From a virus (taxonomy: Duplodnaviria; Heunggongvirae; Uroviricota; Caudoviricetes): a stretch of DNA of 64,000 nt. The position numbers were made by a program, and so were the translations under genes. Shown here one piece after another: positions 2,585 to 57,582 of this stretch. Where the stretch lies: IMG/VR virus record IMGVR_UViG_3300021060_000024, positions 11,577 through 75,576 of that record; one strand, 5' to 3'. The first letter of the stretch is position 1; every line of letters begins with the position of its first letter. Under the pieces are notes generated by a model, which ran no database searches, had not been told where the DNA came from, and saw nothing but the letters and a program-made list of their open reading frames with translations.

Positions 2585-2958
2585 TGGGCAAGGTGCGCGT
2601 GCGCAACAACCGCCTGCCCGGCATCGCCCGGCGCCTGGAGCCGGAGATGGACCGCGAGGTCGACCGCGCCGGGGACGACCTGGCCAACGACGTCGAGGCT
2701 GCGGTGCGCTTCAACACCGGCGAGACGGCCGCCTCGACCAAGAACTACGAGCCGGGTGAGCTGCACGCCACGGTCGGCGTCGGCATCCGCGGCGGGCCCG
2801 CCTTCTACATCCGTTTCTGGGAGTTCGGCTGGCACAACCCCAACCGCTACGGCATCGGCCCCCAGGCCGGTGACCACACCGTGCAGCGCACCGGGCTGGC
2901 CTTCATGCCCGCCTTCCAGTCCCACATCGCCGACGCAGTCAGGAGGGCAGTCCGATGA
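2584..2958 (+). CDS. HK97 gp10-family neck/tail component
   Basis: 124 aa starting MGKVRVRNNRLPGIARRLE. Start overlaps the upstream stop (ATGA). Size and sequence style match HK97 gp10-like proteins. Confidence 0.5.
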   Translation: MGKVRVRNNRLPGIARRLEPEMDREVDRAGDDLANDVEAAVRFNTGETAASTKNYEPGELHATVGVGIRGGPAFYIRFWEFGWHNPNRYGIGPQAGDHTVQRTGLAFMPAFQSHIADAVRRAVR

Positions 2959-3386
2959 GCCACGGTCACGAGCCGCTGGAGGTCATCGAGCCGTACCTGT
3001 ACTCCACGCTCGCGGGCGACCCCTACCTGGCCTCCAGGGTCAACGACCGGATCATCAACACCCTGGCCGCGGCCGGAGTGGACGACCCCTACATCGTCTT
3101 CGCCCAGGCCCAGATCCGTGACCGCCGCATGGTCAGCGGCGTGCGCCTGTGGGTGGACGCGGTCTACGACGTCAAGGCTGTGATGCAGACGGCGAGCTGG
3201 AAGCCCATGCAGCCGCTCGCGGCTCGCTTCGACGAGCTGTTCGACCGCCAGGGCGAGGTCGTGCAGACCGCTGGCGGCAACCTGGAGATCTGGCGCGAGC
3301 GGCTGATCAGCTACCCCGAGATGGTGCAGGGCGTGCAGTTCCGCCACCTCGGCGCGCAGTACCACGTCCGGGCCTACATCCCCTGA
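2955..3386 (+). CDS. tail terminator / tail completion protein
   Basis: 143 aa. Last gene of the neck module and coupled to the upstream gene. Confidence 0.45.
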   Translation: MSHGHEPLEVIEPYLYSTLAGDPYLASRVNDRIINTLAAAGVDDPYIVFAQAQIRDRRMVSGVRLWVDAVYDVKAVMQTASWKPMQPLAARFDELFDRQGEVVQTAGGNLEIWRERLISYPEMVQGVQFRHLGAQYHVRAYIP

Positions 3387-3398
3387 CGGTCGCTCGGG

Positions 3399-3563
3399 TC
3401 AGATGCGGAACGCCCGGCGGCGTCGGATGCCGCCGAACCACCAGACGTTGCAGTCCCGGCAGCTGTAGGTCCGCCACCAGCGCGTCTCTGAGGTGACGAC
3501 CGCGTGGCAGGACGGACAGCGGTGCGGCTTGTTGCCGTTCCGGCGGACGAGGCGATCCGTCAT
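3399..3563 (-). CDS. zinc-ribbon peptide (54 aa, CxxC...CxxC)
   Basis: Hand-translated: MTDRLVRRNGNKPHRCPSCHAVVTSETRWWRTYSCRDCNVWWFGGIRRRRAFRI. Lies downstream of, and co-oriented with, the HTH gene. Confidence 0.3.
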   Translation of the reverse strand: MTDRLVRRNGNKPHRCPSCHAVVTSETRWWRTYSCRDCNVWWFGGIRRRRAFRI

Positions 3564-3682
3564 GGCCTGCTGCTACTCCGTCTTCTCGTCGAGCTCGTTC
3601 AGTACGAAGTCCTCCGCGGCGCGGCGCGTGCTGCGGTCGCTGGAGTGCGCGTAGGCGTCGACCATGGCCCAGTTGACCTCGC

Positions 3683-4069
3683 TCACGGCTGCACTCGCGG
3701 CCGCACGAGGATGGCCTCGCACAGCACGCAGATGTCCCGGCGGCACTGCGGCTTCGCGCAGGAGCAGCGCTCCCAGACGTGGTCGCACCCCGGGCTCGGG
3801 GCCAGGTCGTAGATGTCGATGTCGAGGTGGTGGGCCAGCAGGATGGCCTCCTCGAAACGCAGGCGCCGCGTGCCGAGCTCGATGGCGCCGTACTGGTCGG
3901 CGGCGAGGTCGCACAGCGCGGCCATCTCCACCCGCGTCATGCCCAGGCCGGTGCGCAGCGTGCGCAGACGCTCGGCCACGCCGCCGTCGAACTGGCTCCA
4001 GCTCTGGAGCTTCTGGCGGTTCGGGTTCGGCGCTCCTCCGGGCATGTAGAGATGATGACGAGTGGACAA
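3683..4069 (-). CDS. XRE-family HTH regulator with Cys-rich C-terminus (repressor-like); likely leaderless start at ATG 4045
   Basis: HTH_XRE signature VAERLRTLRTGLGMTRVEMAALCDLAADQYGAIELGTRRL. C-terminus CDHVWERCSCAKPQCRRDICVLC. TTGACT -35 (4080-4075), 17-bp spacer, CATCAT -10, then the ATG immediately at 4045. Confidence 0.65.
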   Translation of the reverse strand: MSTRHHLYMPGGAPNPNRQKLQSWSQFDGGVAERLRTLRTGLGMTRVEMAALCDLAADQYGAIELGTRRLRFEEAILLAHHLDIDIYDLAPSPGCDHVWERCSCAKPQCRRDICVLCEAILVRPRVQP

Positions 4070-4092
4070 GTCTTAGTCAACCCGGACATGAC

Positions 4093-4127
4093 GAGAGCCC
4101 CGGACCCTGAGGGTCTCCGGGGCTCTC
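4093..4127. terminator. GC-rich hairpin between the NlpC/P60 and HTH genes
   Basis: Perfect 12-bp inverted repeat GAGAGCCCCGGA ... TCCGGGGCTCTC with an 11-nt loop. Confidence 0.4.
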
Positions 4128-4163
4128 GCCAATCAGCCACCCACCACGGAGGCTGTCTGGATG

Positions 4164-4931
4164 CTACAGGACGCGACGGAACACGACCTCATCAGTCCAG
4201 AGCTTGCGCTCGCTGACCTCGCTGCCCGTGCGCGGCGCGTCGATGATCTTGCCGTTGCCGACGTAGATCGCGGCGTGGGCGTAGTCGTCGAAGAGCACCA
4301 GGTCGCCGGGGCGCGCCTCGGCGGCCGGGACCCGCGTGCCGAACGTGCGGAGCTGACCGGTGGTGCGCGGGGTGGCCACGCCCGCCGCCTTGCCGTAGAC
4401 GTACTGGATCAGGCCCGAGCAGTCGAAGCCGCGGCTCGGCGTCTCCTCGCCGTAGGCGTAGTCGATGCCGATCTGCTGGCGCGCCAGGGCGAGCACACCC
4501 TCAGCGCGCGAGGCCGCCGGGGCCGCCTGCTCGCGCTGGACGATGTCGCTGGCCTCCTCGGCCGGGGTTGCCACGGGCTGCGCGCGGCCGGGGATCACCA
4601 GGGTCTGGCCCGGGAAGATCAGCGTGCGTGCGCCCAGGCCGTTGGCCGCCAGCATGGCCGAGGTCGAGACCCCGGCGCGCCGCGCGAGCACGCTCACGGT
4701 GTCGCCCGAGCGCACGGTGACGGTGTCGCCGGTCAGGGCCGGCGAACTGGCCGGGCGCGGCGCGGCGCCCGCGGGCGCCTGGGCCATGGCCGGGGTGGCG
4801 AGCATGACCGGCACCACGGCGAGGGCGCCGGTGACGGCCGCGGCGCGGGCGATGTCGGTCTTGTGCAGGGCCAGGGTGTCGAGGACGGGCGTGGCGTCGG
4901 CCACGCGGTGACGGGCTGCGTTCCTGGTCAT
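4164..4931 (-). CDS. secreted LysM + NlpC/P60 peptidoglycan endopeptidase
   Basis: Signal peptide (AAAVTGALAVVPVMLATPAMAQA). LysM (TVTVRSGDTVSVLARRAGVSTSAMLAANGL). NlpC/P60 catalytic Cys (FDCSGLIQYVYG) plus downstream His. Start at the 29th codon of the track ORF, with AGGA upstream. Confidence 0.7.
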   Translation of the reverse strand: MTRNAARHRVADATPVLDTLALHKTDIARAAAVTGALAVVPVMLATPAMAQAPAGAAPRPASSPALTGDTVTVRSGDTVSVLARRAGVSTSAMLAANGLGARTLIFPGQTLVIPGRAQPVATPAEEASDIVQREQAAPAASRAEGVLALARQQIGIDYAYGEETPSRGFDCSGLIQYVYGKAAGVATPRTTGQLRTFGTRVPAAEARPGDLVLFDDYAHAAIYVGNGKIIDAPRTGSEVSERKLWTDEVVFRRVL

Positions 4932-5048
4932 GGTGGCGTCCTGGGTCGCGGGTGGCGTCCGGGGTGCCGGACCAGTCCATGGTGCGGTGTGGTGCGCGCA
5001 TCGGTGGTAGATCACCGGTCGTGCCCACCAGGATCACCCGCGTGGAGC

Positions 5049-5615
5049 ATGCTGTCCACCATGGCCTTCTCTGCGTCGACCGCGGCGCCCGACGACGTCC
5101 AGACGGCGCAGGGCTCCGGACACCTGCTGCACCACCAGCGGCTGCGTGCCGCAGTGCTGGAGCTGCGCAACGCGGGGCTCGCCCTGGAGGGCGACGTGCC
5201 CGAGCTCGCGCGCGATGCCGTCGCCGCGGCCATCCGGGCCACCGGTGGTGCCACGACCTCCAGCGACGACGCCGGTGACACGATCACGATCGACACCTCC
5301 GCGCTGGCCCGTCGCGGCCTGACGCAGAAGCCGATCACGGCCAACTACACCGTCATCGCAGCCGACCTGATCGACACCGTGCTGCACGTCACCGCCAACT
5401 CGGCCATCACGATCACCCTGCCGACGGGGCTGACCACGGAGATCGCGATCCCGTGGCGCCAGTTCGGCCAGGGTCAGGTGACCTTCGTGGCCGCCAGCGG
5501 TGGCTCGCTGCTGGCGCGCGGCGGGGCGAACAAGGCAGCCGGGCAGTACAGCGGGGGTGTGGTCACGGCGATCAACTCCACCGCCTGGCTGCTGGAGGGG
5601 GACATCACCTCGTGA
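5049..5615 (+). CDS. hypothetical protein (188 aa), translationally coupled to the GH6 gene
   Basis: Only the 3' end of track ORF 4161..5615 looks real (MLSTMAFSAS...GDITS). Its stop overlaps the next GTG (GTGA). Confidence 0.4.
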   Translation: MLSTMAFSASTAAPDDVQTAQGSGHLLHHQRLRAAVLELRNAGLALEGDVPELARDAVAAAIRATGGATTSSDDAGDTITIDTSALARRGLTQKPITANYTVIAADLIDTVLHVTANSAITITLPTGLTTEIAIPWRQFGQGQVTFVAASGGSLLARGGANKAAGQYSGGVVTAINSTAWLLEGDITS

Positions 5616-7822
5616 CTGCTCGCGTCTCGCGCCGCGGCGCCATCGGCGCGCTGCGCCGCCTGCTCACCGGCGTGGCCCCCGGCGCTCCGGGCTACCGCAC
5701 GAACTACGTGCCCAACCCCTCCTTCGAGGTCAGCGACGTGCCGGGCTCCCCGGACGGCCAGCGCTACGGCGGGGGCACGTTCTCGCGCGACACCACGGTC
5801 AAGCAGGTCGGCGCCGCCTCCCTCAAGCTCACCGCGACCAGCACCGTGGACTCCGGCCAGTGGGAGTCGATGGCGCTGGGCGCAGGCACCTACACGGCCT
5901 CGGTCTGGATCAAGACCGACAACGTCACGAACGCCTGCATGGTCCTGCGCGACCCGGGCTTCAACGACATCGGCAGCCAGACGCACCTCAGCGGCACCAA
6001 GGACTGGACGCGCTACTCCAACACCTTCACGCTGAGCGCGCCCACCACGGTGCAGATGCTCGTGGGCCTGGGCTCCTACGGCTCGACCAGCGCGGGCACG
6101 GTCTGGTTCGACGGCATGATGATCGAGGCTGGCTCCAACGTCGGCCCCTACTTCGACGGCGGCTACTCCGCGGCGGGCTCGACCGTGGCGTGGAGCGGCG
6201 GCTCCAACGCCTCCCCCTCCACCGAGAAGCGCCAGCCGGCCACGATCGCCACGCAGGCCGCGCTCAGTGCGAGCTCCACCCTCGGGGTCTCCCTGGCGAG
6301 CAGTGGCTCCGGTGCGAGCAACCCGCCGAGCATGTCCAACCTCTACAAGGCCTCGCAGCAGGTGGACAACTACGTCTCGGCCAACCCGAGCCTGTCGGTG
6401 ATCGCCGACCAGCCCCAGGCGCGGTGGATCAACACCCAGGGCGACGCAGACAACATGGGCGGCCTGGTCAGCGCTGCGGGCACCAAGACGCTGCTGATCT
6501 GCATCTACGCCATCCCCGGGCGCGACAACGGCCAGTACAGCGCTGGCGGCTTCCCTGACCGCGCCTCCTACCTGAACTTCCTGCAGACGGTCAAGACCAA
6601 GATCGGCACCAAGTCGGCCTTCATCTTCTTCGAGCCCGACGCGCTGGGCCTGACCAACGGCCTGAGCGCCTCGCTCAAGGCCGAGCGCATCGAGACGCTG
6701 CGCCAGGGCATCGACATCCTGGCCACGATCCCCAACGCCGAGACCTACATCGACGCCTCCAAGTGGATCTCGCCGTCGGACCAGGCCGGGCTGCAGGCCG
6801 CGGTCGACATCGCCAAGGTCTCGGGCATCGTCATGAACGTCTCGGGCTACGACTCCATGGACTCCTGCTACTCCTACGGCGAGGCGGTCCTGTCCGAGCT
6901 GGCCAACCGCGGCATCACCGGCAAGAAGTACATGATCGACTCCGGGCGCAACGGGGTCGGCCCGCTGACCGACGCCGATCGCCCGCTGGCCAACCCCTGG
7001 CTGGACACCTCCCAGGCCTGGTGCAACCCGCCCAAGCGCCGCCTGGGCCCGGTGCCTCAGGTGCCCTCGGGGCGGCCCAACTGCCGTGGCCTGGTGTGGG
7101 TCAAGAACCCCGGCGAGTCCGACGGCACGTTCCCCTCGACGTCGAACTCGACCTACTACGGCGAGAACGCCCCCAGTGCGGGCGCCTTCTGGCTCGTGCA
7201 GGCCAAGATGCTCGCGGGCACCGAGCCCAGTGGCGGCAGCGGCACCCCGGCCAACACCGGCTTCTCCGCTGTGGTGACGACCTTCGACGGCAACTACGGC
7301 GGCCTGAGCGACCGCTCGGCCGGGGTCAGCCTGGTGGGCGGGCGCGCGCGCCTGACCGCGGACACCTCCTACGCCAACATCTCCACGCCGGGCTCGTACA
7401 CGCTCAAGGAGTCCTCGGTCTACGCCCGGCTGTTCCCGCCGTCGGCCAGCGGGGCGACCCAGGCGGCCACGGTGCAGTTCCTGATCCGCTCCACCGCGGC
7501 CGCGGACGGCACCCGCCTGAACGCCGAGGTCAACACCTTCACCGGCAAGCTCACGATCGCCAGCGACTCGGGCTACTACGACGCCAACGCCGTCCAGCTC
7601 ACCTACGACGCCACGGCGCATGCCTTCCTGCGCTGGCGCGAGGCGGGCGGGACGGTCTACCTGGAGACGAGCTCGGACGGCAACAACTGGACCACGCGTC
7701 GCTCGCTGGCCACGCCCTCGTGGCTGACGGCGACCAACAACCAGCTCATGCAGTTCGTGGCCTACAAGGACGCCGGGGCCGCGGCCTACGCCGAGGTCGA
7801 CAACGTCAACACCACCTCCTGA
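5612..7822 (+). CDS. three-domain glycosidase: CBM4/9-like + GH6-like catalytic + ConA/LamG-like domain
   Basis: GH6 motifs LLICIYAIPGRDNG, IFFEPDALGL and LVWVKNPGESDG. N-terminal jelly-roll region (NPSFEVSD...WFDGMMIEAG). GTG start in a GTGA overlap with the upstream stop. Confidence 0.6.
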   Translation: MTARVSRRGAIGALRRLLTGVAPGAPGYRTNYVPNPSFEVSDVPGSPDGQRYGGGTFSRDTTVKQVGAASLKLTATSTVDSGQWESMALGAGTYTASVWIKTDNVTNACMVLRDPGFNDIGSQTHLSGTKDWTRYSNTFTLSAPTTVQMLVGLGSYGSTSAGTVWFDGMMIEAGSNVGPYFDGGYSAAGSTVAWSGGSNASPSTEKRQPATIATQAALSASSTLGVSLASSGSGASNPPSMSNLYKASQQVDNYVSANPSLSVIADQPQARWINTQGDADNMGGLVSAAGTKTLLICIYAIPGRDNGQYSAGGFPDRASYLNFLQTVKTKIGTKSAFIFFEPDALGLTNGLSASLKAERIETLRQGIDILATIPNAETYIDASKWISPSDQAGLQAAVDIAKVSGIVMNVSGYDSMDSCYSYGEAVLSELANRGITGKKYMIDSGRNGVGPLTDADRPLANPWLDTSQAWCNPPKRRLGPVPQVPSGRPNCRGLVWVKNPGESDGTFPSTSNSTYYGENAPSAGAFWLVQAKMLAGTEPSGGSGTPANTGFSAVVTTFDGNYGGLSDRSAGVSLVGGRARLTADTSYANISTPGSYTLKESSVYARLFPPSASGATQAATVQFLIRSTAAADGTRLNAEVNTFTGKLTIASDSGYYDANAVQLTYDATAHAFLRWREAGGTVYLETSSDGNNWTTRRSLATPSWLTATNNQLMQFVAYKDAGAAAYAEVDNVNTTS

Positions 7823-7900
7823 GTCATCCCACCCTCGCTGGGACTGATCGTTCACCACACTGGCGTCTGACCGAGAACCGCACCCGAGAGGAGCCCGGCC

Positions 7901-8905
7901 GTGCCCGAGCGCAGTACTACCTCGCAGACCGTCGCCATCGGCACCGAGGCGACCCCGGGCACCGCTGTCGCCGCGACGCGCCGCCTGGGTTCCATCGGCT
8001 TCCAGATGGGCGTCCAGACCGAGACGCAGAACCGCCGTCCCACCGGCCAGAAGTACGACTCCCTGGTCACCCTGGGTCAGGAGTGGACCGAGGCCGACAT
8101 CGAGGGTGCGCCGGTCTACCCGGAGCTGCCCTACATCTTCTCCTCGCTGATCAACGCCGCCACGGTCACGCAGATCATGGACGCGACCACGGCCACCGGC
8201 GCTTTCCGCTGGGTGTTCGAGTCCAACTCCTTCGGCGAGGACGCGCCCAAGACGTTCACCATCGAGCAGGGCTCCTCCTTCCGCGCCCACCGCGTGAGCA
8301 ACGGCATCATCACGGACTTCACCCTGGAGTTCGACCGCGAGGAGCTCTCCATCGAGGGCACCATGCTCGCCAAGGCCATCGAGGACGGCATCACGCTGAC
8401 CCCGGGCGCCACCATGCGCGACCAGGTGCCGGTGCTGCCCAAGGACGTGAGCGTCTTCCTGGACGCCACGGCCGCGGAGCTGGGCACCACCAAGCTCAAC
8501 CGCGCGCTGAGCGGCTCGATCGACATCGAGTCCCGCTACGCGCCGCTGTGGGTGGTGGACGCCTCTCAGCCCTCCTTCGTGACCACGCTGGAGAGCAACG
8601 AGGCCGAGCTCTCCTTCTCCATCCTGCAGATGGCCGACGCCCAGGCCATGGCCAACCTGACCGCCATGCGCGGTGGCCAGACGCGCTTCCTGCGCTTCCA
8701 GGCCCAGGGCCCGACGATCTACTCCGGCACCACGCCGATCCGCCACTCGTTCGTCATCGAGATGGCTGGCCAGGTGCAGGAGGTCGAGCAGTTCGACGAC
8801 GAGGACGGCGTCTACGCCATCGGCTGGACCTTCGGCGTGGTCCACGACCCGACGTGGAACAAGGCCTACCGCGTGGAGGTCGTCACCAACCACGGTCAGC
8901 TCTGA
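7901..8905 (+). CDS. major tail protein
   Basis: 334 aa. GAGAGGAG RBS then GTG. Followed by a strong hairpin, then the chaperone and tape measure genes. Confidence 0.5.
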   Translation: MPERSTTSQTVAIGTEATPGTAVAATRRLGSIGFQMGVQTETQNRRPTGQKYDSLVTLGQEWTEADIEGAPVYPELPYIFSSLINAATVTQIMDATTATGAFRWVFESNSFGEDAPKTFTIEQGSSFRAHRVSNGIITDFTLEFDREELSIEGTMLAKAIEDGITLTPGATMRDQVPVLPKDVSVFLDATAAELGTTKLNRALSGSIDIESRYAPLWVVDASQPSFVTTLESNEAELSFSILQMADAQAMANLTAMRGGQTRFLRFQAQGPTIYSGTTPIRHSFVIEMAGQVQEVEQFDDEDGVYAIGWTFGVVHDPTWNKAYRVEVVTNHGQL

Positions 8906-15313: not shown

Positions 15314-18300
15314 GTGCCCAAGGTCGCATCCGCCCCGCATCACGACTCCCTCTCGGGCAGCCCCGAGAAGCGCTACGACATCGCCCCCGACGGTGGTGAG
15401 CACCTGCTGGTGGTGGCGCCCTACCGCGCCACCTTCCTGCGCTCGGTCGACGGCGGCAGCGTCTTCAACCCCTTCTCCTCCTTCGACCTGGGCCAGGACA
15501 CCGCGGTGCCCTCCTTCGTCATCGGCGACGACGGCACGGCCTTCGTCTCCTACTGCCAGTGGAACCGCGACCCCCAGGTCATCAAGCTGCGCCGCGGCCG
15601 CCAGACCTCCACGGGCTGGCAGTGGAGCGAGATCACCCTGGCCCCGGGCGGGCGCGTGGGCGTGGACACCGACCTGATCGTCTTCCGCCAGGGCGCGGGC
15701 TACGTGGTCTTCGTCTACTGGACGGCCATGGAGGGCGGCTACGTCGCGCGCGTGGACGTCTCCAGCGACGGCACCATGCGCGTGACCAGCCTGCGCCACG
15801 GCACCAAGGGCGGGCGCGTGGCCGGGCTGATCCAGATGGGCAGCCTGGAGTTCGCCCACAGCGGCGACGGCAAGACGCCGAGCTCGGCCCCGCACCTGTT
15901 CTGCACCACGGCGGCCTCGAACAACCCGCTGTACGTCCACCGCGCGCGCTTCGAGAGCGCGGGGGTGTGGACCTGGGAGGACCCGGTCGTGGTCGAGACC
16001 AACGTCTCGGTCAACCAGACCGCCATGACCACGGTGTGGGACGGCGAGCGGCTGTGCATCGCCTACGTGCTGAACAACTCCTCGACCATCCGGTTCGCGG
16101 AGTGGTCCGGCTCGGGTGCGGTCACCTTCCGCAACCCGCCGGCCTTCCCCTCCGGGCGCGGGGTGGTGCCGGGCATCACGATCAGCCACGACCCGGCGAC
16201 CGACGACATCTACCTGCTGGCCTACGGCTCCACGCAGGGCGACATCATGGCCTGCCGCCTGAACCGCGCCTCGGCCACCTGGGACTCGGCCTGGACCACG
16301 GCGGTGACCCGGCCCGCCTCCACCGCCGACGGCAAGGTCAACGCCGTGCGTCACCCCAGCCGCGACAGCGTGCAGTTCGCCTGGGCCACCCCCGGCGGGG
16401 CGGGCTGGGACGTGTACGCCAGCCAGCTCACCGCACTGGTGCGCACCCCCCAGGCGCCGGTGCTGCTGGACCCGCCCAGTGGTGCCACGCGCGACCTGGC
16501 GGCCGGGTACACCTTCCGCCACCGCTACCAGCCCGTGGGCCCCGGCGACAAGCAGCAGGGCTACTACTGGCGGCGCCAGTACACCTCGGGCGGCTCGGCC
16601 ATCACCGAGTGGTGGAACGCGGCCAGCCAGTCCTGGTCGAGCACCGCGGTGCTGAACACCGGGGAGACCTCGGCGGTGAGCTTCGCGCCGGGCAAGTGGT
16701 CCAACGGCTCGACCTACACCTGGTCGGTGGCCGCGCGCTCGCTGACGGGCTCGGTCTCGCCCTACTCCGCCCCGCGCACCGTGGTGGCCACCACCGCCCC
16801 GGCGCTGACGATCACCGAGCCGCTCGGCATCGTCTTCGGCACCACGACCCCGGCCGTGGCCTGGACCGTGGGTGGGCCCGACCCCCAGCGTGACTACCGC
16901 GTACGCATCGTGCCGGACGCGGCCAACGTGGACGCCAACGACCCCGGGCCTGCGATCTGGGACTCCGGGGTCATCGCCAGCGCGCTCGCGCGGCGCGTGG
17001 TCGTCGGCACCGACCTCACCCCCAACGTGGCCTACCGCGCCTGGGTGCGCGTGACTTCCACCGCGGGCATCGCCTCGGCCTGGGTCTCCTCGCCCTTCCT
17101 GCTCAACCTCAACCCGCCCAACGGGCCGCTGGTGGAGGTCGTCGACGAAGTCGCCTACGGCACCGAGGTGCCGCGCGTGCGCCTGGACCTGCTGGCGCGC
17201 TCCAACCTCATGGGCGAGGACCAGGCGCTGGGCCAGGCGGGCTGGCTGACCGACAACGCCAGCGTGGCGCCGGTGGGGGCCAACACCACCAGCCAGACCG
17301 AGAACGGCGTGGCGCTGACGAGCGCGGCCGGGGGTGCGATGAGCATGCTGAGCGCGCTCGGCACCCCGCCTGCCGCGCCGCCGGGGCGTCCCCAGCCGCT
17401 GGGGCCGCTGTTCTTCCCTGCGGTGCCGGGCCAGACTTACACGGCCATGGCGCACGGACGCAGCCCGGACAACAACCGCGCGCTGCGCGTGAGCATCCAC
17501 TGGTTCTCCGACGACACCGCCGCCGACGGCGCGCTGCCGGGCTCGGCCAGCTACATCACCACCGCAGCCGGGGAGCAGTTCAACATCGGCGCCGCGGCCT
17601 ACAACCAGGCCCGCCTCAGCGCGCGCGCCCCGGCCACGGCCCGCATGGGGCGCGTGGTCGTGGAGGTGCTGGGCGTGGCTGCAGCGGGGGAGGTCGTGTA
17701 CCTGTCGCGCTTCGCGGTCCAGCCCGGCGCGAGCACGGCCTGGCAGCCCGGCGGCTACACCGGCGGTCAGGTGCTGGTGCTGGAGCGCTCGGACGACGAC
17801 GGGGAGGCCTGGCGTCAGGTCGGAGAGCGGATCAAGCCCGACGTCTACCAGCGCGCCGTCACGCGCGACCGCTCGATGCCCATGGGGCGGCGCGTGCTCT
17901 ACCGCGCCTCCACCGTGGTCGATGTCTACGGCGCCTCGGGGGTCTCCACGCTGCGCTCGGTGATCTCCCCGGTGGCGGCCATCAACCTGGCCGGGCCCAC
18001 CTGGATCATGCGCGACCTCACCAACGAGTCCGACGACGGGGAGGTGCTGGCGTTCGTGACCGACTGGCAGGAGGAGGACGAGGAGGAGGTCGCGATCCAC
18101 AAGCCCACGGGTCGCTTCTACCCCGTGGTCGACTCCGAGGGCGAGCACGCCGGCTCGGGCTCGATGACCTTCTACGTGCCCGCGGCGCTGGTGGCCAAGA
18201 CCACGCGCCTGCTCACCTCCGGCAACGCGCTGCTGATGCAGTCCCCGCTGGGCCGGGTGCTCATGGCGCGCTTCTCCCGGCGCGAGTACGAGCCCGAGGT

Positions 18301-18349
18301 CGTGGGCGCGCGCACCATCACGGCCGACTACGTGGAGGTGGAGCGGTGA
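15314..18349 (+). CDS. minor tail protein (Dit-like, 1011 aa) with Asp-box-like motifs and two FN3-like domains
   Basis: First gene after the tape measure. SxDxG motifs (SVDGGSVF, SSDGTMRV). FN3-like segments (PQAPVLLDPPSG...YTWSVAARS and LTITEP...AYRAWVRVTS). Confidence 0.5.
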   Translation: MPKVASAPHHDSLSGSPEKRYDIAPDGGEHLLVVAPYRATFLRSVDGGSVFNPFSSFDLGQDTAVPSFVIGDDGTAFVSYCQWNRDPQVIKLRRGRQTSTGWQWSEITLAPGGRVGVDTDLIVFRQGAGYVVFVYWTAMEGGYVARVDVSSDGTMRVTSLRHGTKGGRVAGLIQMGSLEFAHSGDGKTPSSAPHLFCTTAASNNPLYVHRARFESAGVWTWEDPVVVETNVSVNQTAMTTVWDGERLCIAYVLNNSSTIRFAEWSGSGAVTFRNPPAFPSGRGVVPGITISHDPATDDIYLLAYGSTQGDIMACRLNRASATWDSAWTTAVTRPASTADGKVNAVRHPSRDSVQFAWATPGGAGWDVYASQLTALVRTPQAPVLLDPPSGATRDLAAGYTFRHRYQPVGPGDKQQGYYWRRQYTSGGSAITEWWNAASQSWSSTAVLNTGETSAVSFAPGKWSNGSTYTWSVAARSLTGSVSPYSAPRTVVATTAPALTITEPLGIVFGTTTPAVAWTVGGPDPQRDYRVRIVPDAANVDANDPGPAIWDSGVIASALARRVVVGTDLTPNVAYRAWVRVTSTAGIASAWVSSPFLLNLNPPNGPLVEVVDEVAYGTEVPRVRLDLLARSNLMGEDQALGQAGWLTDNASVAPVGANTTSQTENGVALTSAAGGAMSMLSALGTPPAAPPGRPQPLGPLFFPAVPGQTYTAMAHGRSPDNNRALRVSIHWFSDDTAADGALPGSASYITTAAGEQFNIGAAAYNQARLSARAPATARMGRVVVEVLGVAAAGEVVYLSRFAVQPGASTAWQPGGYTGGQVLVLERSDDDGEAWRQVGERIKPDVYQRAVTRDRSMPMGRRVLYRASTVVDVYGASGVSTLRSVISPVAAINLAGPTWIMRDLTNESDDGEVLAFVTDWQEEDEEEVAIHKPTGRFYPVVDSEGEHAGSGSMTFYVPAALVAKTTRLLTSGNALLMQSPLGRVLMARFSRREYEPEVVGARTITADYVEVER

Positions 18350-21215: not shown

Positions 21216-21392
21216 GTGAGCGAGCTCGACGCCACCTACACCCACCCCACCGGCGAGCACATCGACTGGAGCGCCTGGCCCGAGCCTGACGCCGCCGACG
21301 GTGACGGCTCGGAGTTCGGCGAGCGCCTGGGCGATGGCCCCGGCGCGGTGACCGACACCACCGTGGCCGCCACCCAGCGTCTGGAGTCCTGA
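21216..21392 (+). CDS. small acidic protein (58 aa)
   Basis: GTG start. Its stop overlaps the LysA ATG. Confidence 0.3.
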   Translation: MSELDATYTHPTGEHIDWSAWPEPDAADGDGSEFGERLGDGPGAVTDTTVAATQRLES

Positions 21393-22414
21393 TGGCCCTG
21401 AACCTCGATCAGGTCGTGCAGCGCGCGATCCCCTCCCCGAACTACTCCAGCCGCGGCGGCAAGGACGTGCGCCTGCTGCTGCTGCACACCGCCGAGGGCA
21501 GCCGGACCAACGCCTCCCTGGGCTCCTGGTTCGGGCGCAAGTCCACCAAGGCCTCCAGCCACGTCGGGATCGACGCCGACAGCGTGGTGCGCTTCGTGCC
21601 CGAGGCCTACTCGGCCTGGACCGCGCGCTCGGCCAACCCCGTGGCCTCCCAGGCCGAGCTCTGCGCCTGGGCCAAGTGGAAGGGCGCCGAGTGGGGCGCC
21701 CAGGACTCGATGCTGGAGAACGCCGCCCGCTGGCTGGCGGCCGCGGCGCGCTACCACGACATCCCCCTGGTGCGCCTGCGCGACGCCCAAACCAAGTCCG
21801 GGCGCGGCGTGGCCATGCACGTCGACATCACGCGCGGCTGGCGCGAGGGCTCCCACGCCGACTGCGGCCAGTGGTTCGCCGACCACCTCATGGACTCCGT
21901 GATCGAGCGCGCTCGGGTACTGGCTGGCGGCGCGGGCAGCCCCGTGGTCGTGCCCGCGGTGCCGGTCCCGATGCCCGCAGGCCGCGGCCCCTACGGGCTG
22001 CCGGTGCTGCGCTGCGACGGGGCCGAGTCCGGCTGGGCCTGGCTGATGCAGGAGGCGCTCATCCGCGCCGGGCACGCGCTCAGCCGCGACGGCAGGCCCG
22101 GAGCCCAGACCGACCGCGAGCTGCGCAAGTACCAGGCTGCGCGCGGGCTGGCCGTGGACGCGGTCTGCGGCGGCTGGACGTGGGCCTCCTTCATCAAGGA
22201 CGCGGGCGACCCGCTGCGCCAGGGCATGGCCAAGGGCCACCCCGGCGTCGAGGTGCTGCAGAACTTCCTCGGCATGCGCGGCGCCGACCTGGACCGCGAC
22301 TTCGGCGGCGGCACCGCGGCGCGCCTGCGGGCGGTGCAGTCCTGGGGCGACCTGAGCCCCGACGCGGTGGTCGGCTCCGACACCCGCACCCTGCTCGCGA
22401 CGCGGGCCTACTGA
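21392..22414 (+). CDS. endolysin: N-acetylmuramoyl-L-alanine amidase + two PG_binding_1 domains
   Basis: Amidase_2 motifs VRLLLLHTAEGS and SHADCGQW. Two peptidoglycan-binding repeats (DRELRKYQAARGLAVDAVCGGWTW and GVEVLQNFLGMRGADLDRDFGGGTAARLRAVQ). Confidence 0.8.
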   Translation: MALNLDQVVQRAIPSPNYSSRGGKDVRLLLLHTAEGSRTNASLGSWFGRKSTKASSHVGIDADSVVRFVPEAYSAWTARSANPVASQAELCAWAKWKGAEWGAQDSMLENAARWLAAAARYHDIPLVRLRDAQTKSGRGVAMHVDITRGWREGSHADCGQWFADHLMDSVIERARVLAGGAGSPVVVPAVPVPMPAGRGPYGLPVLRCDGAESGWAWLMQEALIRAGHALSRDGRPGAQTDRELRKYQAARGLAVDAVCGGWTWASFIKDAGDPLRQGMAKGHPGVEVLQNFLGMRGADLDRDFGGGTAARLRAVQSWGDLSPDAVVGSDTRTLLATRAY

Positions 22415-22424: not shown

Positions 22425-22670
22425 ATGAGCACCGACGACCCCAAGACCATCCCGACCCCGGTCAGCCCCAAGGTCTACTCCAGCACCGGCGCGGGTGCGG
22501 CGCTGCTGGCCCTGGGCTTCATCCTGCGCTACTACGGCCTGGACGTGCCCGACGCCGTCATCGGGGCCGTGGCCGTGATCGGCACGTTCGCCGCGGGCTA
22601 CATCACCCCCGACCGCCTGCGCGAGATCGGGGCCGTCTTCCAGCGCGGCCGCGGCGAGCACCGCGCGTGA
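22425..22670 (+). CDS. holin (2 TM, 81 aa)
   Basis: Helices GAGAALLALGFILRYYG and AVIGAVAVIGTFAAGYI. Lies immediately after the endolysin. Confidence 0.6.
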   Translation: MSTDDPKTIPTPVSPKVYSSTGAGAALLALGFILRYYGLDVPDAVIGAVAVIGTFAAGYITPDRLREIGAVFQRGRGEHRA

Positions 22671-22975
22671 TCACCCTGCTGGGTCAGCCTGCCGAGTGGA
22701 TGGATCGCGCAGCCTGCGCGGACCTGCGCACGAACATGTTCCCCTCGGTGCGCGACCCGGCAGGGCAGGCCGCGGCCAAGGCCGTCTGCAGGGGCTGCCC
22801 GGTGGAGGCCGAGTGTCGTGAGCTCGGCCTGGGCCAGGACAAGCAGGGCCGCGCCGAGGAGCGCTGGGGGGTCTGGGGCGGCCAGAACGGACCCCAGCGC
22901 GGGCGCACCGCGGCACGCCGCGCGAAGCACCCCACGAGGCGTTCCAAGATCATGCCCCCCACCCCCGAGGCATAA
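22667..22975 (+). CDS. WhiB-family [4Fe-4S] transcription factor
   Basis: Four Cys in AACADL...AVCRGCPVEAECRELGL, plus GVWGG and a basic tail. GTGA overlap with the holin. Confidence 0.7.
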   Translation: MITLLGQPAEWMDRAACADLRTNMFPSVRDPAGQAAAKAVCRGCPVEAECRELGLGQDKQGRAEERWGVWGGQNGPQRGRTAARRAKHPTRRSKIMPPTPEA

Positions 22976-23070: not shown

Positions 23071-23140
23071 CGCCCCCTCAACCACTGCTTGAGGGTTGCG
23101 AGTCCACCACCCCGACGGCCTCCAGATCTACGCTCTGGCC

Positions 23141-24505
23141 ATGGGCCGACACGCCACCACCCCTCGTCCGCGAGGTCGTCTGCGCTCGCGTCACTGGGGC
23201 GTCCTGATCGGCACCCTGGCCGTGGTCGGCCTGGGTGCCACCGCAGGCCTGGCTGCCACCGGCGGCCTGCCCGGGGTGCGCTCGACGTCGGAGACTCCGG
23301 CCGCGGGCGGCAAGTACGTCACCACCGTCGAGGACGGCAAGCTCACCCGGCTGGAGTTCGTCCCGGACGGGTCCACCGCGGCCCCCAGCGCCACGCTGAG
23401 CCCCTCGGCCACGGCCACCGGCACTCCGAGTGCTTCGGCCTCCGCAAGCGCCTCAGCGTCCAGCGCAGCCCCCTCGGCGACCACCGCCGCCTCGGCGGCC
23501 CCGACCGGCAAGCCCCCGGCGGCCACGTCTGCGGCCCCCAGCGCCACGCAGAGCCCCTCGCGCAGCGCCAGCAGCACTCCGGCACCCCCGGCCACCTCCA
23601 GCCCCGCAGCGACGACCACAGCCCCTCCCGCCGTGGGCGCGGGCGACTGGCTCTCGGGCGTGGCCGGGACCGGCGACACCGACGGGCGCTTCGGCACCTG
23701 GCGCGGCACGCCGGTGGAGATCGTGGGCACCTGGGCCGACGCCGACGAGGCCAACCAGCGCCGCATCTACACCGTCACCGGCGGCTCGGGGCGCTTCGCC
23801 GGCCCGATCGACGTCGGGGTCGGCGCCCTGGTGCGCGGGGAGACCTGGGCCGCCGCGGCGCGCGGGGCCAACGACGCCCGCTGGCGGGAGTCCCTGACGG
23901 TGATGCGCGACGCGCGCGCGGGCAAGGGCACCACCTACATCCGCTTCGCCCACGAGATGAACGGCAACTGGTACCCCTGGGCCGTCAACGCCTCCAACCG
24001 GGCCGACTTCATCACCGCCTGGAAGCGCTACCGCGCGCTGCAGCGGGAGATCTTCCCCCAGGCCAAGCTCGTGTTCAGCGTCAACCGCGAGTCCGTGGGC
24101 TCGGGCATCGACTGGCGCACCACGTTCCCCGGGCCCGGCCAGGTCGACGTCATGAGCGTGGACTACTACAACTTCGCCGGGGTTTCCACGGCCGCGGAGT
24201 GGCGCAGCGAGATCGAGCGCACCGACCGCTTCGGGGCCCCGATCGGCCTGGAGCAGCACCGGCGCTTCGCGGCCTCGGTGGGCCTGCCGCTGGCGATCTC
24301 GGAGTGGTCCGGGCGCGCCTCCGAGGGCGATGACCCGGAGTTCATGACCCAGATGAACGCCTTCTTGCGCACCAACGGCGGCTCGGGGCCGGGCCAGATG
24401 CTCTACGAGATCGTCTTCAACATCGGCGGCTACGAGGGCAACTACCAGCTCTTCCCCACCACCAGCCAGCCCGCGGCCGCGGCACGCTACCGCGATGTCT
24501 TCTGA
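23141..24505 (+). CDS. membrane-anchored/secreted GH26-like glycoside hydrolase with Ser/Thr/Ala/Pro linker
   Basis: Signal anchor (VLIGTLAVVGLGATAGLAATG), low-complexity linker, YIRFAHEMNGNWYPW (GH26 acid motif) and LPLAISEWSG (nucleophile-like motif). Confidence 0.55.
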   Translation: MGRHATTPRPRGRLRSRHWGVLIGTLAVVGLGATAGLAATGGLPGVRSTSETPAAGGKYVTTVEDGKLTRLEFVPDGSTAAPSATLSPSATATGTPSASASASASASSAAPSATTAASAAPTGKPPAATSAAPSATQSPSRSASSTPAPPATSSPAATTTAPPAVGAGDWLSGVAGTGDTDGRFGTWRGTPVEIVGTWADADEANQRRIYTVTGGSGRFAGPIDVGVGALVRGETWAAAARGANDARWRESLTVMRDARAGKGTTYIRFAHEMNGNWYPWAVNASNRADFITAWKRYRALQREIFPQAKLVFSVNRESVGSGIDWRTTFPGPGQVDVMSVDYYNFAGVSTAAEWRSEIERTDRFGAPIGLEQHRRFAASVGLPLAISEWSGRASEGDDPEFMTQMNAFLRTNGGSGPGQMLYEIVFNIGGYEGNYQLFPTTSQPAAAARYRDVF

Positions 24506-30163: not shown

Positions 30164-30454
30164 CTAGCGCGAGCGGAGCGCGTCCAGGCCGGTCTCGACC
30201 ACGTCCTCCAGGGTCTGCCCGGGGGGCAGCTCGCCGTTGCTCAGGCCGAAGATCTTGTCCAGGGCCTGACGCACGACCTCGGCCCGCGAGATCTTGGCGG
30301 CGGCGCTGGCGGACTCCACCGCGGCGCGCTGGGTGGGAGTGCCCACCCACGGCATCTGCTTGGTCAGTCTCGCTTCGACGGCCACGGCGGCCTCCTCTCG
30401 GGTCGATGTCCAGGTCACAGTACGTGACTCGATGACCAGTTGACAACGCGTCAT
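30164..30454 (-). CDS. ribbon-helix-helix-like DNA-binding protein
   Basis: C-terminal QRAAVESASAAAKISRAEVVRQALDKIFGL. First gene of the leftward operon. TTGACA-like -35 in the 52-bp divergent intergenic region. Confidence 0.4.
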   Translation of the reverse strand: MTRCQLVIESRTVTWTSTREEAAVAVEARLTKQMPWVGTPTQRAAVESASAAAKISRAEVVRQALDKIFGLSNGELPPGQTLEDVVETGLDALRSR

Positions 30455-30506
30455 CCACTCGGGCAGTCTCCTCGGTGTCAGAACCACCACAGAACGGAGG
30501 AAGTCG

Positions 30507-35756: not shown

Positions 35757-36348
35757 GCCCACCCGCGCCCAGCGCCTGCTGATCAACAGGAAGGTGCGCA
35801 TCACCGACAGCGCTTGGCCCGACCACATCGGCTTCATCGGCCTGTCCGAGTGGGATTCCGAGGGCAACGGCACCGCGCCGGACCAGCACTGGGTCGTCCG
35901 CGAGCTCAACGGCACCGGCGGCCGCTACGGCAGCGCCGTCGAGCTCGTCGAGGATCTGGTCGTCGTCGAGCCCATCACCCCGGCCAACGTGCGCGCGCTG
36001 GCGCTGAGCCAGGCCAAGCAGCTCTACCCCGACGGCGACCTCCACGACCACATCACCGCGGCCGCATGGCTGCTGCAGGCTCCCGAGCCCGAGATCAAGC
36101 CCATCGCCCCGCCGATCAGTTCCGGGCCCACCGCTGAGACCGTCGAGACCCCCTGGCGCTTCCGCTGGACGGACTCCCAGGGGAACCGCAACCTGGCGTG
36201 CAGGCTGGACAGCCCCGACAGTGATGGCGACATCGCCTGGATGTCCACCCACGACGAGGACAAGGGGACCCGCACCGTCTACTTCAACCCCGCCCAGGCC
36301 GCGAGCGTGGTGGAGATCCTGCGGGAGACGCTGCGCGGAGGGAGTTGA
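35749..36348 (+). CDS. hypothetical protein (199 aa)
   Basis: Track ORF in the recombination operon. Confidence 0.4.
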   Translation: MTEPTRAQRLLINRKVRITDSAWPDHIGFIGLSEWDSEGNGTAPDQHWVVRELNGTGGRYGSAVELVEDLVVVEPITPANVRALALSQAKQLYPDGDLHDHITAAAWLLQAPEPEIKPIAPPISSGPTAETVETPWRFRWTDSQGNRNLACRLDSPDSDGDIAWMSTHDEDKGTRTVYFNPAQAASVVEILRETLRGGS

Positions 36349-36406
36349 CAAGGCTTCATCCACGACTGATAGAGTTTCACCACCCCACACGGAAGGACGC
36401 ATCATC

Positions 36407-40962: not shown

Positions 40963-41422
40963 AGCCCAGCTCCTGCAGCTTGGCCGCGAGGCTGTCCGCG
41001 CTCCTGAACGAGGCGTCGGTGAGGTTGAGCGCCTGAGCCATCCGCGTGCGCTCGGCCGCCTTGGGGTCGGTCGGCCACGGCTCGTGGCCCATCAGCACCC
41101 GGTAGAGCATCAGCGCGTTCGCGGCGTGCTGGAGCACCCAGTTCGGGTTCTCCCCCCGGCGCGCGCGGCAGGCCGAGACCCCCTCGCCCACCTCGACCGC
41201 GTCCACCCCGGCCCAGCGCACCTCCTCAGCGTCCTCGACCAGGAAGTCGCGCACGTCGGGGTGCAGGTCGAGGTAGTTGCCCTTCTCGTAGGCCTCGGTG
41301 AGCGCCGCCAGCACTGCGGCGCGCCAGCGCTGGGCCGGAGTGGAGATGTCGTCCGCCCACCAGGCCTTCCTGGCGGCCGCCGTGGCGGCGTCCACGAACT
41401 CATCGGACCAGACCTGACCCAT
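40934..41422 (-). CDS. hypothetical protein (162 aa)
   Basis: Track ORF. Most distal gene of the leftward block. Confidence 0.4.
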   Translation of the reverse strand: MGQVWSDEFVDAATAAARKAWWADDISTPAQRWRAAVLAALTEAYEKGNYLDLHPDVRDFLVEDAEEVRWAGVDAVEVGEGVSACRARRGENPNWVLQHAANALMLYRVLMGHEPWPTDPKAAERTRMAQALNLTDASFRSADSLAAKLQELGFTLPERPAA

Positions 41423-41829
41423 CAGGCGAACACCCCCGAGCGGGTCTGGATGGCGTCCGCCGTCGAGCGCATCAGCATGAGTACCGCCGCCTGGCTGGTC
41501 TTGGGCTCGTCGTTCCAGTTGGGGAAGTGACCCAGGTGGGGCGTGGTCGGGGTGTCCCGGGCCCCCACGGCCAGCGACAGCGCCTCCTCAGCCAGGTAGG
41601 CCGCACCGTGAGCGCGCTCGCCGGTGCCCTTCACGACCTCGATGGCGCCCCAGCCGCAGCAGGGCTGCGCGGAGCGCGGCGTCCCCTGCGAGATCGGGAA
41701 CAGGCCGCCCTTGTGCAGCCCCACGCGCTCCAGGTGGTCGGCGGCCTCGGTGAGCACCCGCGCGACCTCCTCGCGGCTGGCGCCCTCCTGGGCCAGGGTG
41801 TGCTTCCACAGCGACGGCGACATGCTCAC
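41422..41829 (-). CDS. AADH-PCC paralog family member P1
   Basis: LTEAADHLERVGLHKGGLF...PCCGWGAIEVV...FPNWNDEP...MRSTADAI. Confidence 0.45.
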   Translation of the reverse strand: MSMSPSLWKHTLAQEGASREEVARVLTEAADHLERVGLHKGGLFPISQGTPRSAQPCCGWGAIEVVKGTGERAHGAAYLAEEALSLAVGARDTPTTPHLGHFPNWNDEPKTSQAAVLMLMRSTADAIQTRSGVFA

Positions 41830-44172: not shown

Positions 44173-44378
44173 GGGGCACTCGTCCTCTCGATGGTGATCT
44201 TGAACTTGGTCTGGTGCTGGTCGCCCAGCCCGGTCAGCGTCATGTCGACGTTGGCGACGTTGGCCCCACGGGTGCGCATCACGGCGCTGGCGAAGACGCA
44301 CAGCTCGTCGTCGTACTCCCCGTCCGCCGAGGCCACGAAGTGCTCCGCAGCCTCGGCAGCCGTGATGGGGATGGTCAC
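44169..44378 (-). CDS. hypothetical protein (69 aa)
   Basis: GTGA-coupled to the lipoprotein gene. Confidence 0.3.
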   Translation of the reverse strand: MTIPITAAEAAEHFVASADGEYDDELCVFASAVMRTRGANVANVDMTLTGLGDQHQTKFKITIERTSAP

Positions 44379-46306: not shown

Positions 46307-46383
46307 GCGCACTCCTTGGTGGTGGTCGCCTCCGGCGAACCCGGCGGCGTGAGTGGAACTCTCGCGCACTGGACAAGGGCTTG

Positions 46384-57549: not shown

Positions 57550-57582
57550 GATCTTGACCTCCGTGGTGGTGGGCGGGTCGTG

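Follow-up and report, generated by a model that had tools for sequence, protein, structure and literature searches.

The stretch of DNA analysed here (positions 11,577 to 75,576 of IMG/VR record IMGVR_UViG_3300021060_000024; 64 kb, 71.1% GC, referred to below as the window) is part of a circularly assembled actinophage genome of ~75.4 kb. Positions 3399-4931 are occupied throughout by coding-like leftward open reading frames (ORFs), and rightward structural genes lie on both sides (Table 1). The block comprises two leftward units, namely a gene for a predicted secreted peptidoglycan endopeptidase with LysM and NlpC/P60 domains (referred to as P60) and an operon encoding a helix-turn-helix (HTH) protein, an acidic micro-ORF (sORF37) and a zinc-ribbon-like protein. 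A sequence-only reading of this DNA had proposed ~1.5 kb of leftward genes between rightward structural genes, made up of an HTH gene, a 54-aa CxxC...CxxC peptide downstream of it and a LysM-NlpC/P60 gene. The ORFs, a GC content at third codon positions (GC3) of 0.91-0.96 in the called frames and the gene caller of the source contig, which predicted the same genes, all agree with this layout, and the three proposed genes are indeed present. The number of genes, however, has to be corrected to four, and the zinc-ribbon ORF does not directly follow the HTH gene because sORF37 lies between the two. On the left, the block is bordered by a tail-completion-like gene, which is kept in related phages and represents one border of a variable site; minor-tail-like, GH6-domain and major-tail-position genes follow on the right (5049-8905, rightward).

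Table 1: Positions of the genes, domains and sequence elements in the window.
Feature	Position (nt)	Strand	Remarks
Tail-completion-like structural gene	2955-3386	+	left flank; weak Pfam Tail_completion_gp17 match; homologs in L001, L002, L004
Zinc-ribbon-like ORF	3399-3563	-	54 aa, very basic, CPSC-x14-CRDC; last gene of the leftward operon
sORF37	3573-3686	-	acidic, 37 aa; called in source annotations
XRE-family HTH protein	3683-4045	-	120 aa, Cys-rich C-terminal tail
Cys tail	3719-3787	-	residues 87-109; CxH-x4-CxC-x4-C-x4-CxxC
HTH domain	3806-3976	-	residues 24-80
Promoter, sigma-70/HrdB-type	4052-4080	-	TTGACT 4075-4080, 17-nt spacer, CATCAT 4052-4057
G+C-rich hairpin	4089-4131	-	inverted repeat just after the P60 stop codon
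P60 gene	4164-4931	-	predicted secreted LysM + NlpC/P60 (C40) peptidoglycan endopeptidase, 255 aa
P60, NlpC/P60 domain	4200-4466	-	residues 156-244
P60, LysM	4590-4718	-	residues 72-114
P60, predicted signal peptide	4785-4931	-	residues ~1-49
Small conserved stem-loop	4957-4972	-	GTCCGG-CACC-CCGGAC; ~25 nt upstream of the P60 ATG
Minor-tail-like gene	5049-5615	+	right flank
GH6-domain protein	5612-7822	+	Pfam E = 5e-38; among tail genes
Major-tail-position gene	7901-8905	+	right flank
Endolysin, canonical	21392-22414		Amidase_2 + PG_binding_1
WhiB-like transcription factor	22667-22975	+	Pfam E = 1.6e-12; directly 3' of the holin-like gene
GH26-like protein	23096-24505	+	signal peptide; weak Pfam match; follows the lysis cassette
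18-bp motif, copy 2	30440-30457	+	TTGACAACGCGTCATCCA; 67 nt upstream of the rightward block starting at 30507
18-bp motif, copy 3	36345-36362	+	TTGACAAGGCTTCATCCA; upstream of the gene at 36407
18-bp motif, copy 4	46370-46387	-	TTGACAAGCCCTTGTCCA; 75 nt upstream of the leftward DUF6197 gene 45500-46312
Lsr2 DNA-binding-domain protein	53064-53519	-	

Only a handful of public sequences are related to the block. L003, a Logan contig of 988 bp with 91% DNA identity to the window, covers the 3' end of the P60 gene together with the hairpin and the same promoter, and continues through the HTH gene, whose product is 88% identical with no Cys or His lost, into sORF37. L004 and L005, Logan contigs of 8-9 kb, represent a closer relative of the whole phage, with 86% identity for the major-tail-position protein and 58-69% for the flanking connector-like genes; at the same site they carry P60 (72% identity) and the hairpin with compensatory changes, behind which six other leftward genes are located (194, 169 (lipoprotein-like), 80, 41, 156 and 67 aa). 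Phages of the L003 and L004 types are represented in the sequencing runs SRR13100622, SRR30758791 and SRR30758802. L001 and L002, more distant relatives from IMG/VR, lack the leftward block. At this site L001 encodes a signal-peptide protein that is secreted and glycosidase-like, and L002 a glycosidase-like protein with signal peptide and FN3 domain, next to a leftward HNH endonuclease gene.

Comparison with L003 revealed 18 synonymous and 8 non-synonymous codon changes in P60 and 20 and 13, respectively, in the HTH gene, while all three nucleotide changes in sORF37 are synonymous. Synonymous changes exceed non-synonymous ones in all three genes, which indicates purifying selection. High-GC sequence gives rise to many spurious ORFs and no homolog of the zinc-ribbon protein was detected by tblastn against cultured phage records, so that the block might be thought of as an annotation artefact, or as recently captured host DNA without function. 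The GC3 values, the codon changes, the intact catalytic residues of P60 and the preservation of P60, hairpin and sORF37 in three diverged phage loci speak against this explanation, to which we give hardly any weight.

The P60 gene and the hairpin behind it

Both domains of P60 were recognised by Pfam above the respective cut-offs (NLPC_P60, PF00877, 75.2 bits with a cut-off of 23; LysM, PF01476, 45.7 bits with a cut-off of 20.9). Cys171, which is part of a DCSG motif, His219 and Asp231 are the same in all phage and bacterial homologs that were aligned, suggesting that the catalytic Cys-His-acidic triad is intact and that P60 is probably a peptidase. Hydropathy and alignment further identified a hydrophobic segment (residues 29-49) which ends in AMA/QA and is common to the bacterial homologs; this signal peptide looks cleavable and points to export of the Sec type. 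The earlier description of a signal-peptide protein with LysM and NlpC/P60 domains is thus borne out.

In L004 and L005 the stem of the small stem-loop upstream of the gene is kept, and one loop nucleotide has changed from C to T; taken over its full length, the 5' region shows no unusual degree of structure (z = -1.47). A tandem duplication of 19 nt (4932-4969; GGTGGCGTCCTGGGTCGCG / GGTGGCGTCCGGGGTGCCG, + strand) directly precedes the P60 start codon. The putative ribosome-binding region is thereby present twice, an arrangement that L004 does not share in this form. At the other end of the gene, the hairpin that had been noticed between the P60 and HTH genes is present, folds at -37.1 kcal/mol (z = -5.68) and was not matched in stability by any of 200 shuffled sequences. 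It is conserved in the window, L003 and L004, and 4 of its 18 base pairs show compensatory changes across these three loci. The hairpin looks like an intrinsic terminator without a U-tract, which would end the P60 transcription unit.

The closest cellular homologs of P60 are chromosomal, show 45% identity and have the same architecture and length. One of them is annotated as 'cell wall-associated hydrolase, NlpC family' of Quadrisphaera granulorum (246 aa, 45% identity); this homolog and a second one share the same bacterial neighbourhood, adjoining a cytosine/purine permease gene, and a third chromosomal homolog adjoins an HATPase_c_2 gene. Among cultured phage records, in which NlpC/P60 domains are common as tail lysins or endolysin modules, 347 match the NlpC/P60 domain and none of them covers 80% of the query; alignment of P60 against JGI metagenome contigs yielded no relative. 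Since the nearest full-length homologs outside these phages are chromosomal, P60 looks like a captured host wall hydrolase. It shares the order of signal peptide, LysM and NlpC/P60 as well as the conserved Cys-His-acidic residues with hydrolases of the RipA/RipB and Quadrisphaera types, and its length with the Q. granulorum protein. In contrast to these enzymes it is phage-encoded, and it scores far below the NCBIfam cut-offs for RipA, RipB and RipC. A role of P60 as a virion or tail lysin was considered and rejected on the basis of the signal peptide, the full-length bacterial homologs and the absence of a fusion to a tail protein.

Phage endolysins that are exported via Sec independently of a holin are an established class, represented by Lys44 of fOg44 (PMC7143992). 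Like these, P60 is a phage-encoded, predicted muralytic enzyme with an N-terminal secretion signal, and a homolog is found in what is, judged by gene order, a lysis-cassette-like position in L009 (Logan SRR13100624, 7096-9044). In this contig of an unrelated phage, an Amidase_2 gene is directly followed by the gene for a 347-aa P60 homolog and then by two small ORFs; the homolog is a fusion of LysM, an Rpf-like transglycosylase domain (PF06737) and NlpC/P60, with a similar N-terminal hydrophobic segment. Rpf-like and RipA-like domains are thus joined in a single phage protein in L009. Unlike the genes of the exported endolysins, that of P60 lies outside the lysis cassette: a distance of 17 kb separates it from the amidase and holin-like genes, it is encoded on the opposite strand, and it has an apparent terminator of its own. 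In addition, the phage possesses a conventional amidase endolysin.

We suggest that P60 is a captured host gene which would be transcribed up to its own hairpin terminator and would specify a Sec-exported LysM-NlpC/P60 D,L-endopeptidase. Infected cells would export the enzyme into the wall, where it might cut peptide stems and complement the Amidase_2 endolysin in the cytoplasm, in the role of either an exported helper lysin or a cell-separation enzyme easing release. Alternatively, P60 could be a diffusible exoenzyme which, together with the glycoside hydrolases of the phage, loosens packets, aggregates or biofilm so that progeny reach neighbouring cells. The cleavable-looking signal peptide, the host-like secreted architecture, the GH6-domain and signal-peptide GH26-like proteins encoded by the same phage and the signal-peptide proteins of similar type at the same site in L001 and L002 are consistent with this idea, as is the origin of the closest cellular homolog: Q. 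granulorum is described as forming granules of cocci arranged in packets. A LysM, however, would tether P60 to the wall of the producing cell, and the homolog in L009 lies inside a lysis cassette. We consider the exoenzyme a minority possibility; aggregate loosening would rank as a close second to the auxiliary exported endopeptidase.

The HTH operon and a repeated promoter motif

The N-terminal part of the HTH protein matches Pfam HTH_3 (PF01381; residues 27-80, 30.4 bits with a cut-off of 23) as well as HTH_31 and HTH_19, and it is the sole Pfam-detectable HTH protein found in the genome. As stated in the sequence-only reading, a Cys-rich C-terminus takes the place of a peptidase domain, for which no match was obtained in this protein. 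C87, H89, C94, C96, C101, C106 and C109 of this tail are all invariant in the homolog P0001, which shows 89% identity and is the only protein with the Cys tail recovered when 5.8 billion clusters were searched by word index and 1.84 billion representatives were scanned in full with HMMER; all other matches in both searches cover the HTH domain alone. No match was found by tblastn against cultured phage records and no relative in IMG/VR, and searches of PDB sequences with the Cys tail alone returned chance matches only. Among solved structures, C.AhdI (E = 0.0026) and 434 Cro come closest, the best PADLOC match is the restriction-modification family 'Control_protein' (E = 1.3e-4), and weak matches to PHROG 'transcriptional repressor' families and to NCBIfam RstR were observed. 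The similarities to solved structures and to the defence library all remain far below membership level, and no defence system was assigned by PADLOC.

sORF37 begins with a GTG start codon that overlaps the stop codon of the HTH gene (GTGA), which suggests translational coupling between the two. The protein is 100% identical in L003, and L004 and L005 encode a 41-aa homolog (59% identity) whose gene likewise overlaps the end of the small gene before it. Of all parts of the block, sORF37 is the best conserved. A profile search recovered the known members only, and a degenerate DNA pattern gave one chance match inside a membrane protein and none in viral contigs. At the DNA level, sORF37 differs by 2.6% between the window and L003 (823-936) compared to 13.1% for the HTH gene and 9.3% for the P60 gene, and the homology between the two sequences stops abruptly right after the sORF37 stop codon. 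This low divergence looks like a conserved mosaic or recombination junction or, alternatively, extra constraint at the nucleotide level. In L003, the only relative with the HTH gene, the zinc-ribbon ORF is not conserved and a different sequence is found instead. The ORF converges with the rightward tail-completion-like gene, whose stop codon is 12 nt away from the end of the ORF; no terminator was detected behind the ORF, and its product is weakly similar to the zinc ribbon of eL43/L37ae (E = 0.02 and E = 0.006).

A scan of positions 3000-5600 detected a single promoter of the sigma-70 type, compared to 0.1 expected from shuffled sequences. It provides the HTH operon with its own promoter. The operon is flanked by structural genes and, in the same orientation on its upstream side, by the P60 gene. 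The A of the HTH start codon, at 4045, comes 7 nt after the end of the -10 hexamer, and no Shine-Dalgarno sequence is present. Such geometry is expected for actinobacterial leaderless genes, and the spacing fits a leaderless HTH mRNA with a predicted transcription start at A4045. In L003, the only homologous locus, the stretch running from the -35 hexamer through the ATG is almost unchanged, and apart from it only the hairpin stem has escaped the divergence seen in the intergenic region. The TTGACT-17-CATCAT promoter with leaderless geometry, as reported earlier, therefore holds as a conserved sequence feature. A TTG in the same frame at 4069 could serve as the start codon instead, in which case the HTH mRNA would no longer count as leaderless.

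The -35 hexamer and spacer of this promoter (4063-4080) represent one copy of an 18-bp motif, TTGACW-N5-TYRTCMA, which has four exact matches in the window compared to none in 100 shuffled sequences. All four copies are intergenic and oriented toward the downstream gene, and each is followed by a -10 candidate of the ANNNT type, located 17-19 nt past the TTGAC hexamer. TTGACA and TTGACT hexamers in general are exclusively intergenic in the window. The other three sites face replication, recombination and other non-structural gene blocks. Since the motif is common to the promoter-like sites of non-structural blocks, expression of the HTH gene during the lytic cycle fits these data, and its presence in the HTH promoter links the HTH operon with the promoter set of the phage itself. 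Taken together, sequence and arrangement of the sites suggest that the HTH protein may autoregulate and act at the four motif sites.

A second repeated promoter-like family of ~45 nt was observed in the block at 50-58 kb. Its leftward copies at 54017(-), 55382(-) and 56300(-) precede successive leftward genes and read TTGACC, 17 nt (...CCGCACCACCCCG), TAACGT, TCTACCCATCA; at 57554(+), only the TTGACC hexamer and an inverted form of the shared stretch are found. These elements may represent a distinct temporal promoter class.

Controller (C) proteins of restriction-modification systems are known to autoregulate at sites overlapping their own -35 hexamer, and C.PvuII is made from a leaderless mRNA (PMC2175313). 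The HTH protein resembles C.AhdI, C.PvuII and 434 Cro in being a small HTH protein with a candidate site overlapping its own -35 hexamer. It differs from them by an extra Cys-rich tail of 40 residues and an N-terminal extension of 23 residues. No restriction endonuclease gene is found downstream, and the candidate site is neither a GACT-N3-AGTC C-box nor clearly palindromic. The two-domain immunity repressors of Cluster A mycobacteriophages act as monomers and bind asymmetric sites that overlap an early promoter (PMC9283540). An analogy, and no more than that, might be seen in a two-domain HTH protein with a repeated, asymmetric candidate site overlapping a -35 TTGACA. There is no sequence similarity between these repressors and the HTH protein; the window contains 4 candidate sites instead of dozens of stoperators, the phage appears to be non-temperate, and binding is hypothetical in the present case.

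According to our proposal, the HTH operon would be transcribed from the host-type promoter, giving rise to the HTH protein, the coupled sORF37 and the basic zinc-ribbon protein. The HTH protein would be an early-expressed regulator comparable to Cro or a controller protein, which would autoregulate and act at promoters sharing the 18-bp element that overlaps the -35 hexamer. Should later rightward transcription extend through the block, it would run against the leftward units. A more specific version regards HTH domain and Cys tail as a new two-domain regulator, in which the XRE domain and a metal-binding tail (Zn or Fe-S, possibly redox-sensing) read an asymmetric bipartite site during lytic growth, modulated by sORF37 and perhaps by the zinc-ribbon protein. 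At the four promoter-like sites, TTGACW and TYRTCMA, the two halves of the motif, are spaced by one helical turn and cover the -35 region, which would be in keeping with such a protein; we nevertheless regard this version as doubtful.

The operon might instead be a toxin-antitoxin-like, superinfection-exclusion or anti-defence module with P60 as unrelated cargo, in which the XRE protein serves as an autoregulating antitoxin or controller and the acidic 37-aa and basic 54-aa proteins form an effector/neutraliser pair. Such a role would be in line with the matches to 'Control_protein' and C.AhdI as the best ones in the defence library and among solved structures, and with the tight coupling and opposite charge of the small genes. 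Phage accessory islands often carry defence or counter-defence genes, and the alternative cargo of L004 includes a SpoT/RelA-like HD hydrolase, a typical host-manipulation function. This protein of 156 aa (L004 7090-7560; also in L005) is similar to the hydrolase portion at the N-terminus of RelA/SpoT (NCBIfam E = 1.7e-8); it may represent a phage-encoded alarmone hydrolase. However, sORF37, the zinc-ribbon protein and P60 match no PADLOC family, all matches of the HTH protein are far below family cut-offs, no nuclease or recognisable toxin domain was found, and L003, with the same HTH gene and sORF37, has other sequence where the zinc-ribbon gene would be. We therefore consider a defence module rather unlikely.

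A variable tail-region site in an apparently virulent phage

The absence of the block from L001 and L002 and the different cargo in L004 and L005 indicate that the site is a hot spot for accessory DNA. Comparison of the loci depicts P60 with its putative terminator as the conserved anchor and sORF37 as a conserved small element, the remaining cargo being swapped. Synteny with related phages, which had been proposed as a check, thus argues for an accessory insert; it does not support the immunity region that had been offered along with it, as the HTH gene is missing from L004 and L005.

Morons are known from lambdoid and other phages, for example gene 15 of HK97 in the tail operon, and are recognised as extra DNA with its own promoter and terminator, deviating GC and expression from the repressed prophage (PMC3594210). 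The block likewise represents extra DNA between tail genes in comparison to related phages, consists of independent units, P60 with its own terminator and the HTH operon with its own promoter, and at least P60 has its closest full-length homologs in bacterial chromosomes. The likeness is only partial, as no promoter was recognised for P60 and no terminator was found for the HTH operon. Unlike typical morons, the block does not deviate in GC (72.0% compared to 71.1% for the window), and it comprises several genes, with exchangeable cargo following an anchor gene that is conserved. As no lysogeny module was found, the block is unlikely to be expressed from a repressed prophage. The term moron cassette, one of two interpretations offered by the sequence-only reading, is accordingly appropriate as far as the additional DNA at a hypervariable site, the P60 terminator and the HTH promoter are concerned, but not with respect to GC content.

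Searches with Pfam, either our own scans or precomputed matches, covered every predicted gene of at least 190 aa except the tail-module gene 15314-18349, and among these genes of the ~75.4-kb genome no integrase, serine recombinase, excisionase or ParA/B domain was detected. Neither the HTH protein nor the major-tail-position protein has a relative among 185,579 bacterial and archaeal species, each represented by one genome, in a search that finds close relatives only. As lysogeny domains and prophage relatives were not found, the phage is most likely virulent, a conclusion drawn from absence of evidence. Furthermore, the HTH gene has neither a divergent cro-like partner nor adjoining early lytic genes, setting the locus apart from immunity regions of the CI/Cro type.

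These observations bear on the second interpretation offered earlier, the immunity region of a temperate phage, in which the HTH protein would be the repressor made from a leaderless mRNA in lysogens and P60 a lysogenic-conversion gene. Leaderless repressor genes are classic, with lambda cI transcribed from P_RM as an example; the HTH protein does show weak similarity to the repressor families of PHROG and to RstR, its genes face against the late operon, and its operon has a host-type promoter, as is often the case for genes expressed from prophages. On the other hand, integrase, excisionase and partition genes were not found among the scanned genes of the complete genome and prophage relatives were not found among the species searched, the locus lacks the divergent cro-like gene and adjoining early lytic genes, the island of the closely related L004 and L005 does without the HTH gene, and the same promoter motif, which fits the lytic cycle, precedes replication and recombination gene blocks. 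An immunity region with a lysogen-expressed hydrolase is thus not supported, and we regard it as highly improbable.

We favour, with moderate confidence, the view that the block is an accessory island of two units, resembling a moron and located at a recombination hot spot among the tail genes of an actinophage of ~75 kb that appears to be virulent. This view is based on the genes and domains identified, the covariation in the hairpin, the conserved promoter, purifying selection, the variable nature of the site, the lack of detectable lysogeny genes and the enrichment of the motif. Several points weigh against this view or parts of it. Expression timing, transcription start site, export, the enzymatic role of P60 and the nature of the motif-binding protein are predicted from sequence alone, and the lack of an integrase does not prove a virulent lifestyle. 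The promoter scan recognised no sigma-70-type promoter upstream of P60. The HTH gene is dispensable in the lineage, because L004, the closest relative with a full island, lacks it, which weakens the idea of a core regulator; modelling of the HTH protein by AlphaFold2 from a two-sequence alignment gave a predicted local distance difference test (pLDDT) score of 41, and the model was not used. The motif pattern was derived from the sites that it then matched. A stricter search for a symmetric palindromic operator, TTGAC-N8-GTCAA, was not significant, with only 2 sites and 14 of 100 shuffles equally good; the two motif subtypes also imply different symmetry, and this candidate was rejected in favour of the asymmetric 18-bp motif. 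The motif could also be bound by another factor, for example the WhiB-like or Lsr2-like proteins of the phage, or could be merely a promoter class; queries with primase-helicase and YqaJ, aimed at the motif in other phages without the HTH gene, gave no usable relatives.

The interest of the island is mainly genomic and current understanding is not overturned. Its new elements are the architecture of HTH domain plus Cys tail, the conserved micro-ORF and the organisation of an anchor with swappable cargo. An apparently virulent actinophage keeps a swappable, backward-facing island in its tail-gene region, with the apparently host-derived wall endopeptidase as its anchor and the micro-ORF at its border; as morons are usually discussed for temperate phages, an island of this kind in a phage without lysogeny genes widens the picture. 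P60 and the amidase plus Rpf-P60 cassette of L009 are candidate muralytic tools against high-GC actinobacteria, and the HTH protein with its Cys tail and the 18-bp motif at four promoter-like sites would represent a small regulatory circuit which is directly testable.

Other features of the phage genome

ENA contig ERZ27250785 k141_661892 (75,580 bp) encodes P60 and terminase-position proteins identical to those of the window. Two coordinate mappings lie 75,439 bp apart, which fits a circular assembly with a terminal overlap of 141 bp. The 11.4 kb outside the window contain the rest of the portal gene, scaffold, major capsid and further structural genes. A megablast search with 12 kb of the window against 50,697 cultured phage records found no match.

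The overall gene content is siphovirus-like and of the actinophage type. Packaging is represented by a terminase-position gene and the portal gene, and the structural set by head-tail connector and tail genes, a 1911-aa tape-measure-position protein and baseplate and collar proteins. The endolysin gene is followed by an 81-aa holin-like ORF, the WhiB-like gene and the gene for the secreted GH26-like protein. Replication and accessory genes encode a primase-polymerase/D5 helicase, dCMP deaminase, YqaJ exonuclease, endonuclease VII, C5 methylase and an Lsr2-like protein. No tRNA genes and no Rfam families were detected in the window.

With the GH6-domain and GH26-like proteins of this phage, glycosidases directed at wall or matrix seem to be a theme of the lineage. 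The signal-peptide proteins at the tail-gene hot spot of L001 (8424-9815) and L002 (7698-9266) have a similar conserved block (EMN...W). A second variable spot was noticed in the connector region, where the homolog of window gene 2204-2584 appears to be split in L001 (5900-7360), its N-terminal part being fused into a 486-aa ORF and its C-terminal part lying in the next ORF, ~1.5 kb apart. Just beyond the window, downstream of the capsid gene and between a 372-aa gene and the head-tail connector region, lies a gene for a 1577-aa protein without a recorded Pfam match (L006 15973-20706; L007 from 19034).

Four paralogous DUF6197 genes are located in one leftward block (41422-41829, 44375-44755, 45156-45503 and 45500-46312, all on the - strand), which also holds an SPFH/Band-7 gene (43309-44172). 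Upstream of the first gene of this block lies copy 4 of the 18-bp motif. Next to it, a 64-aa ORF (46434-46628, - strand; MHKETRHLLKAIEAQGFTVQRAGNGHYKVRN...) without a match in Pfam, PADLOC or NCBIfam has a stop codon that overlaps the TTGACA of the motif at 46387. This ORF starts 6 nt after a TATGCT hexamer and is thus another candidate leaderless gene.

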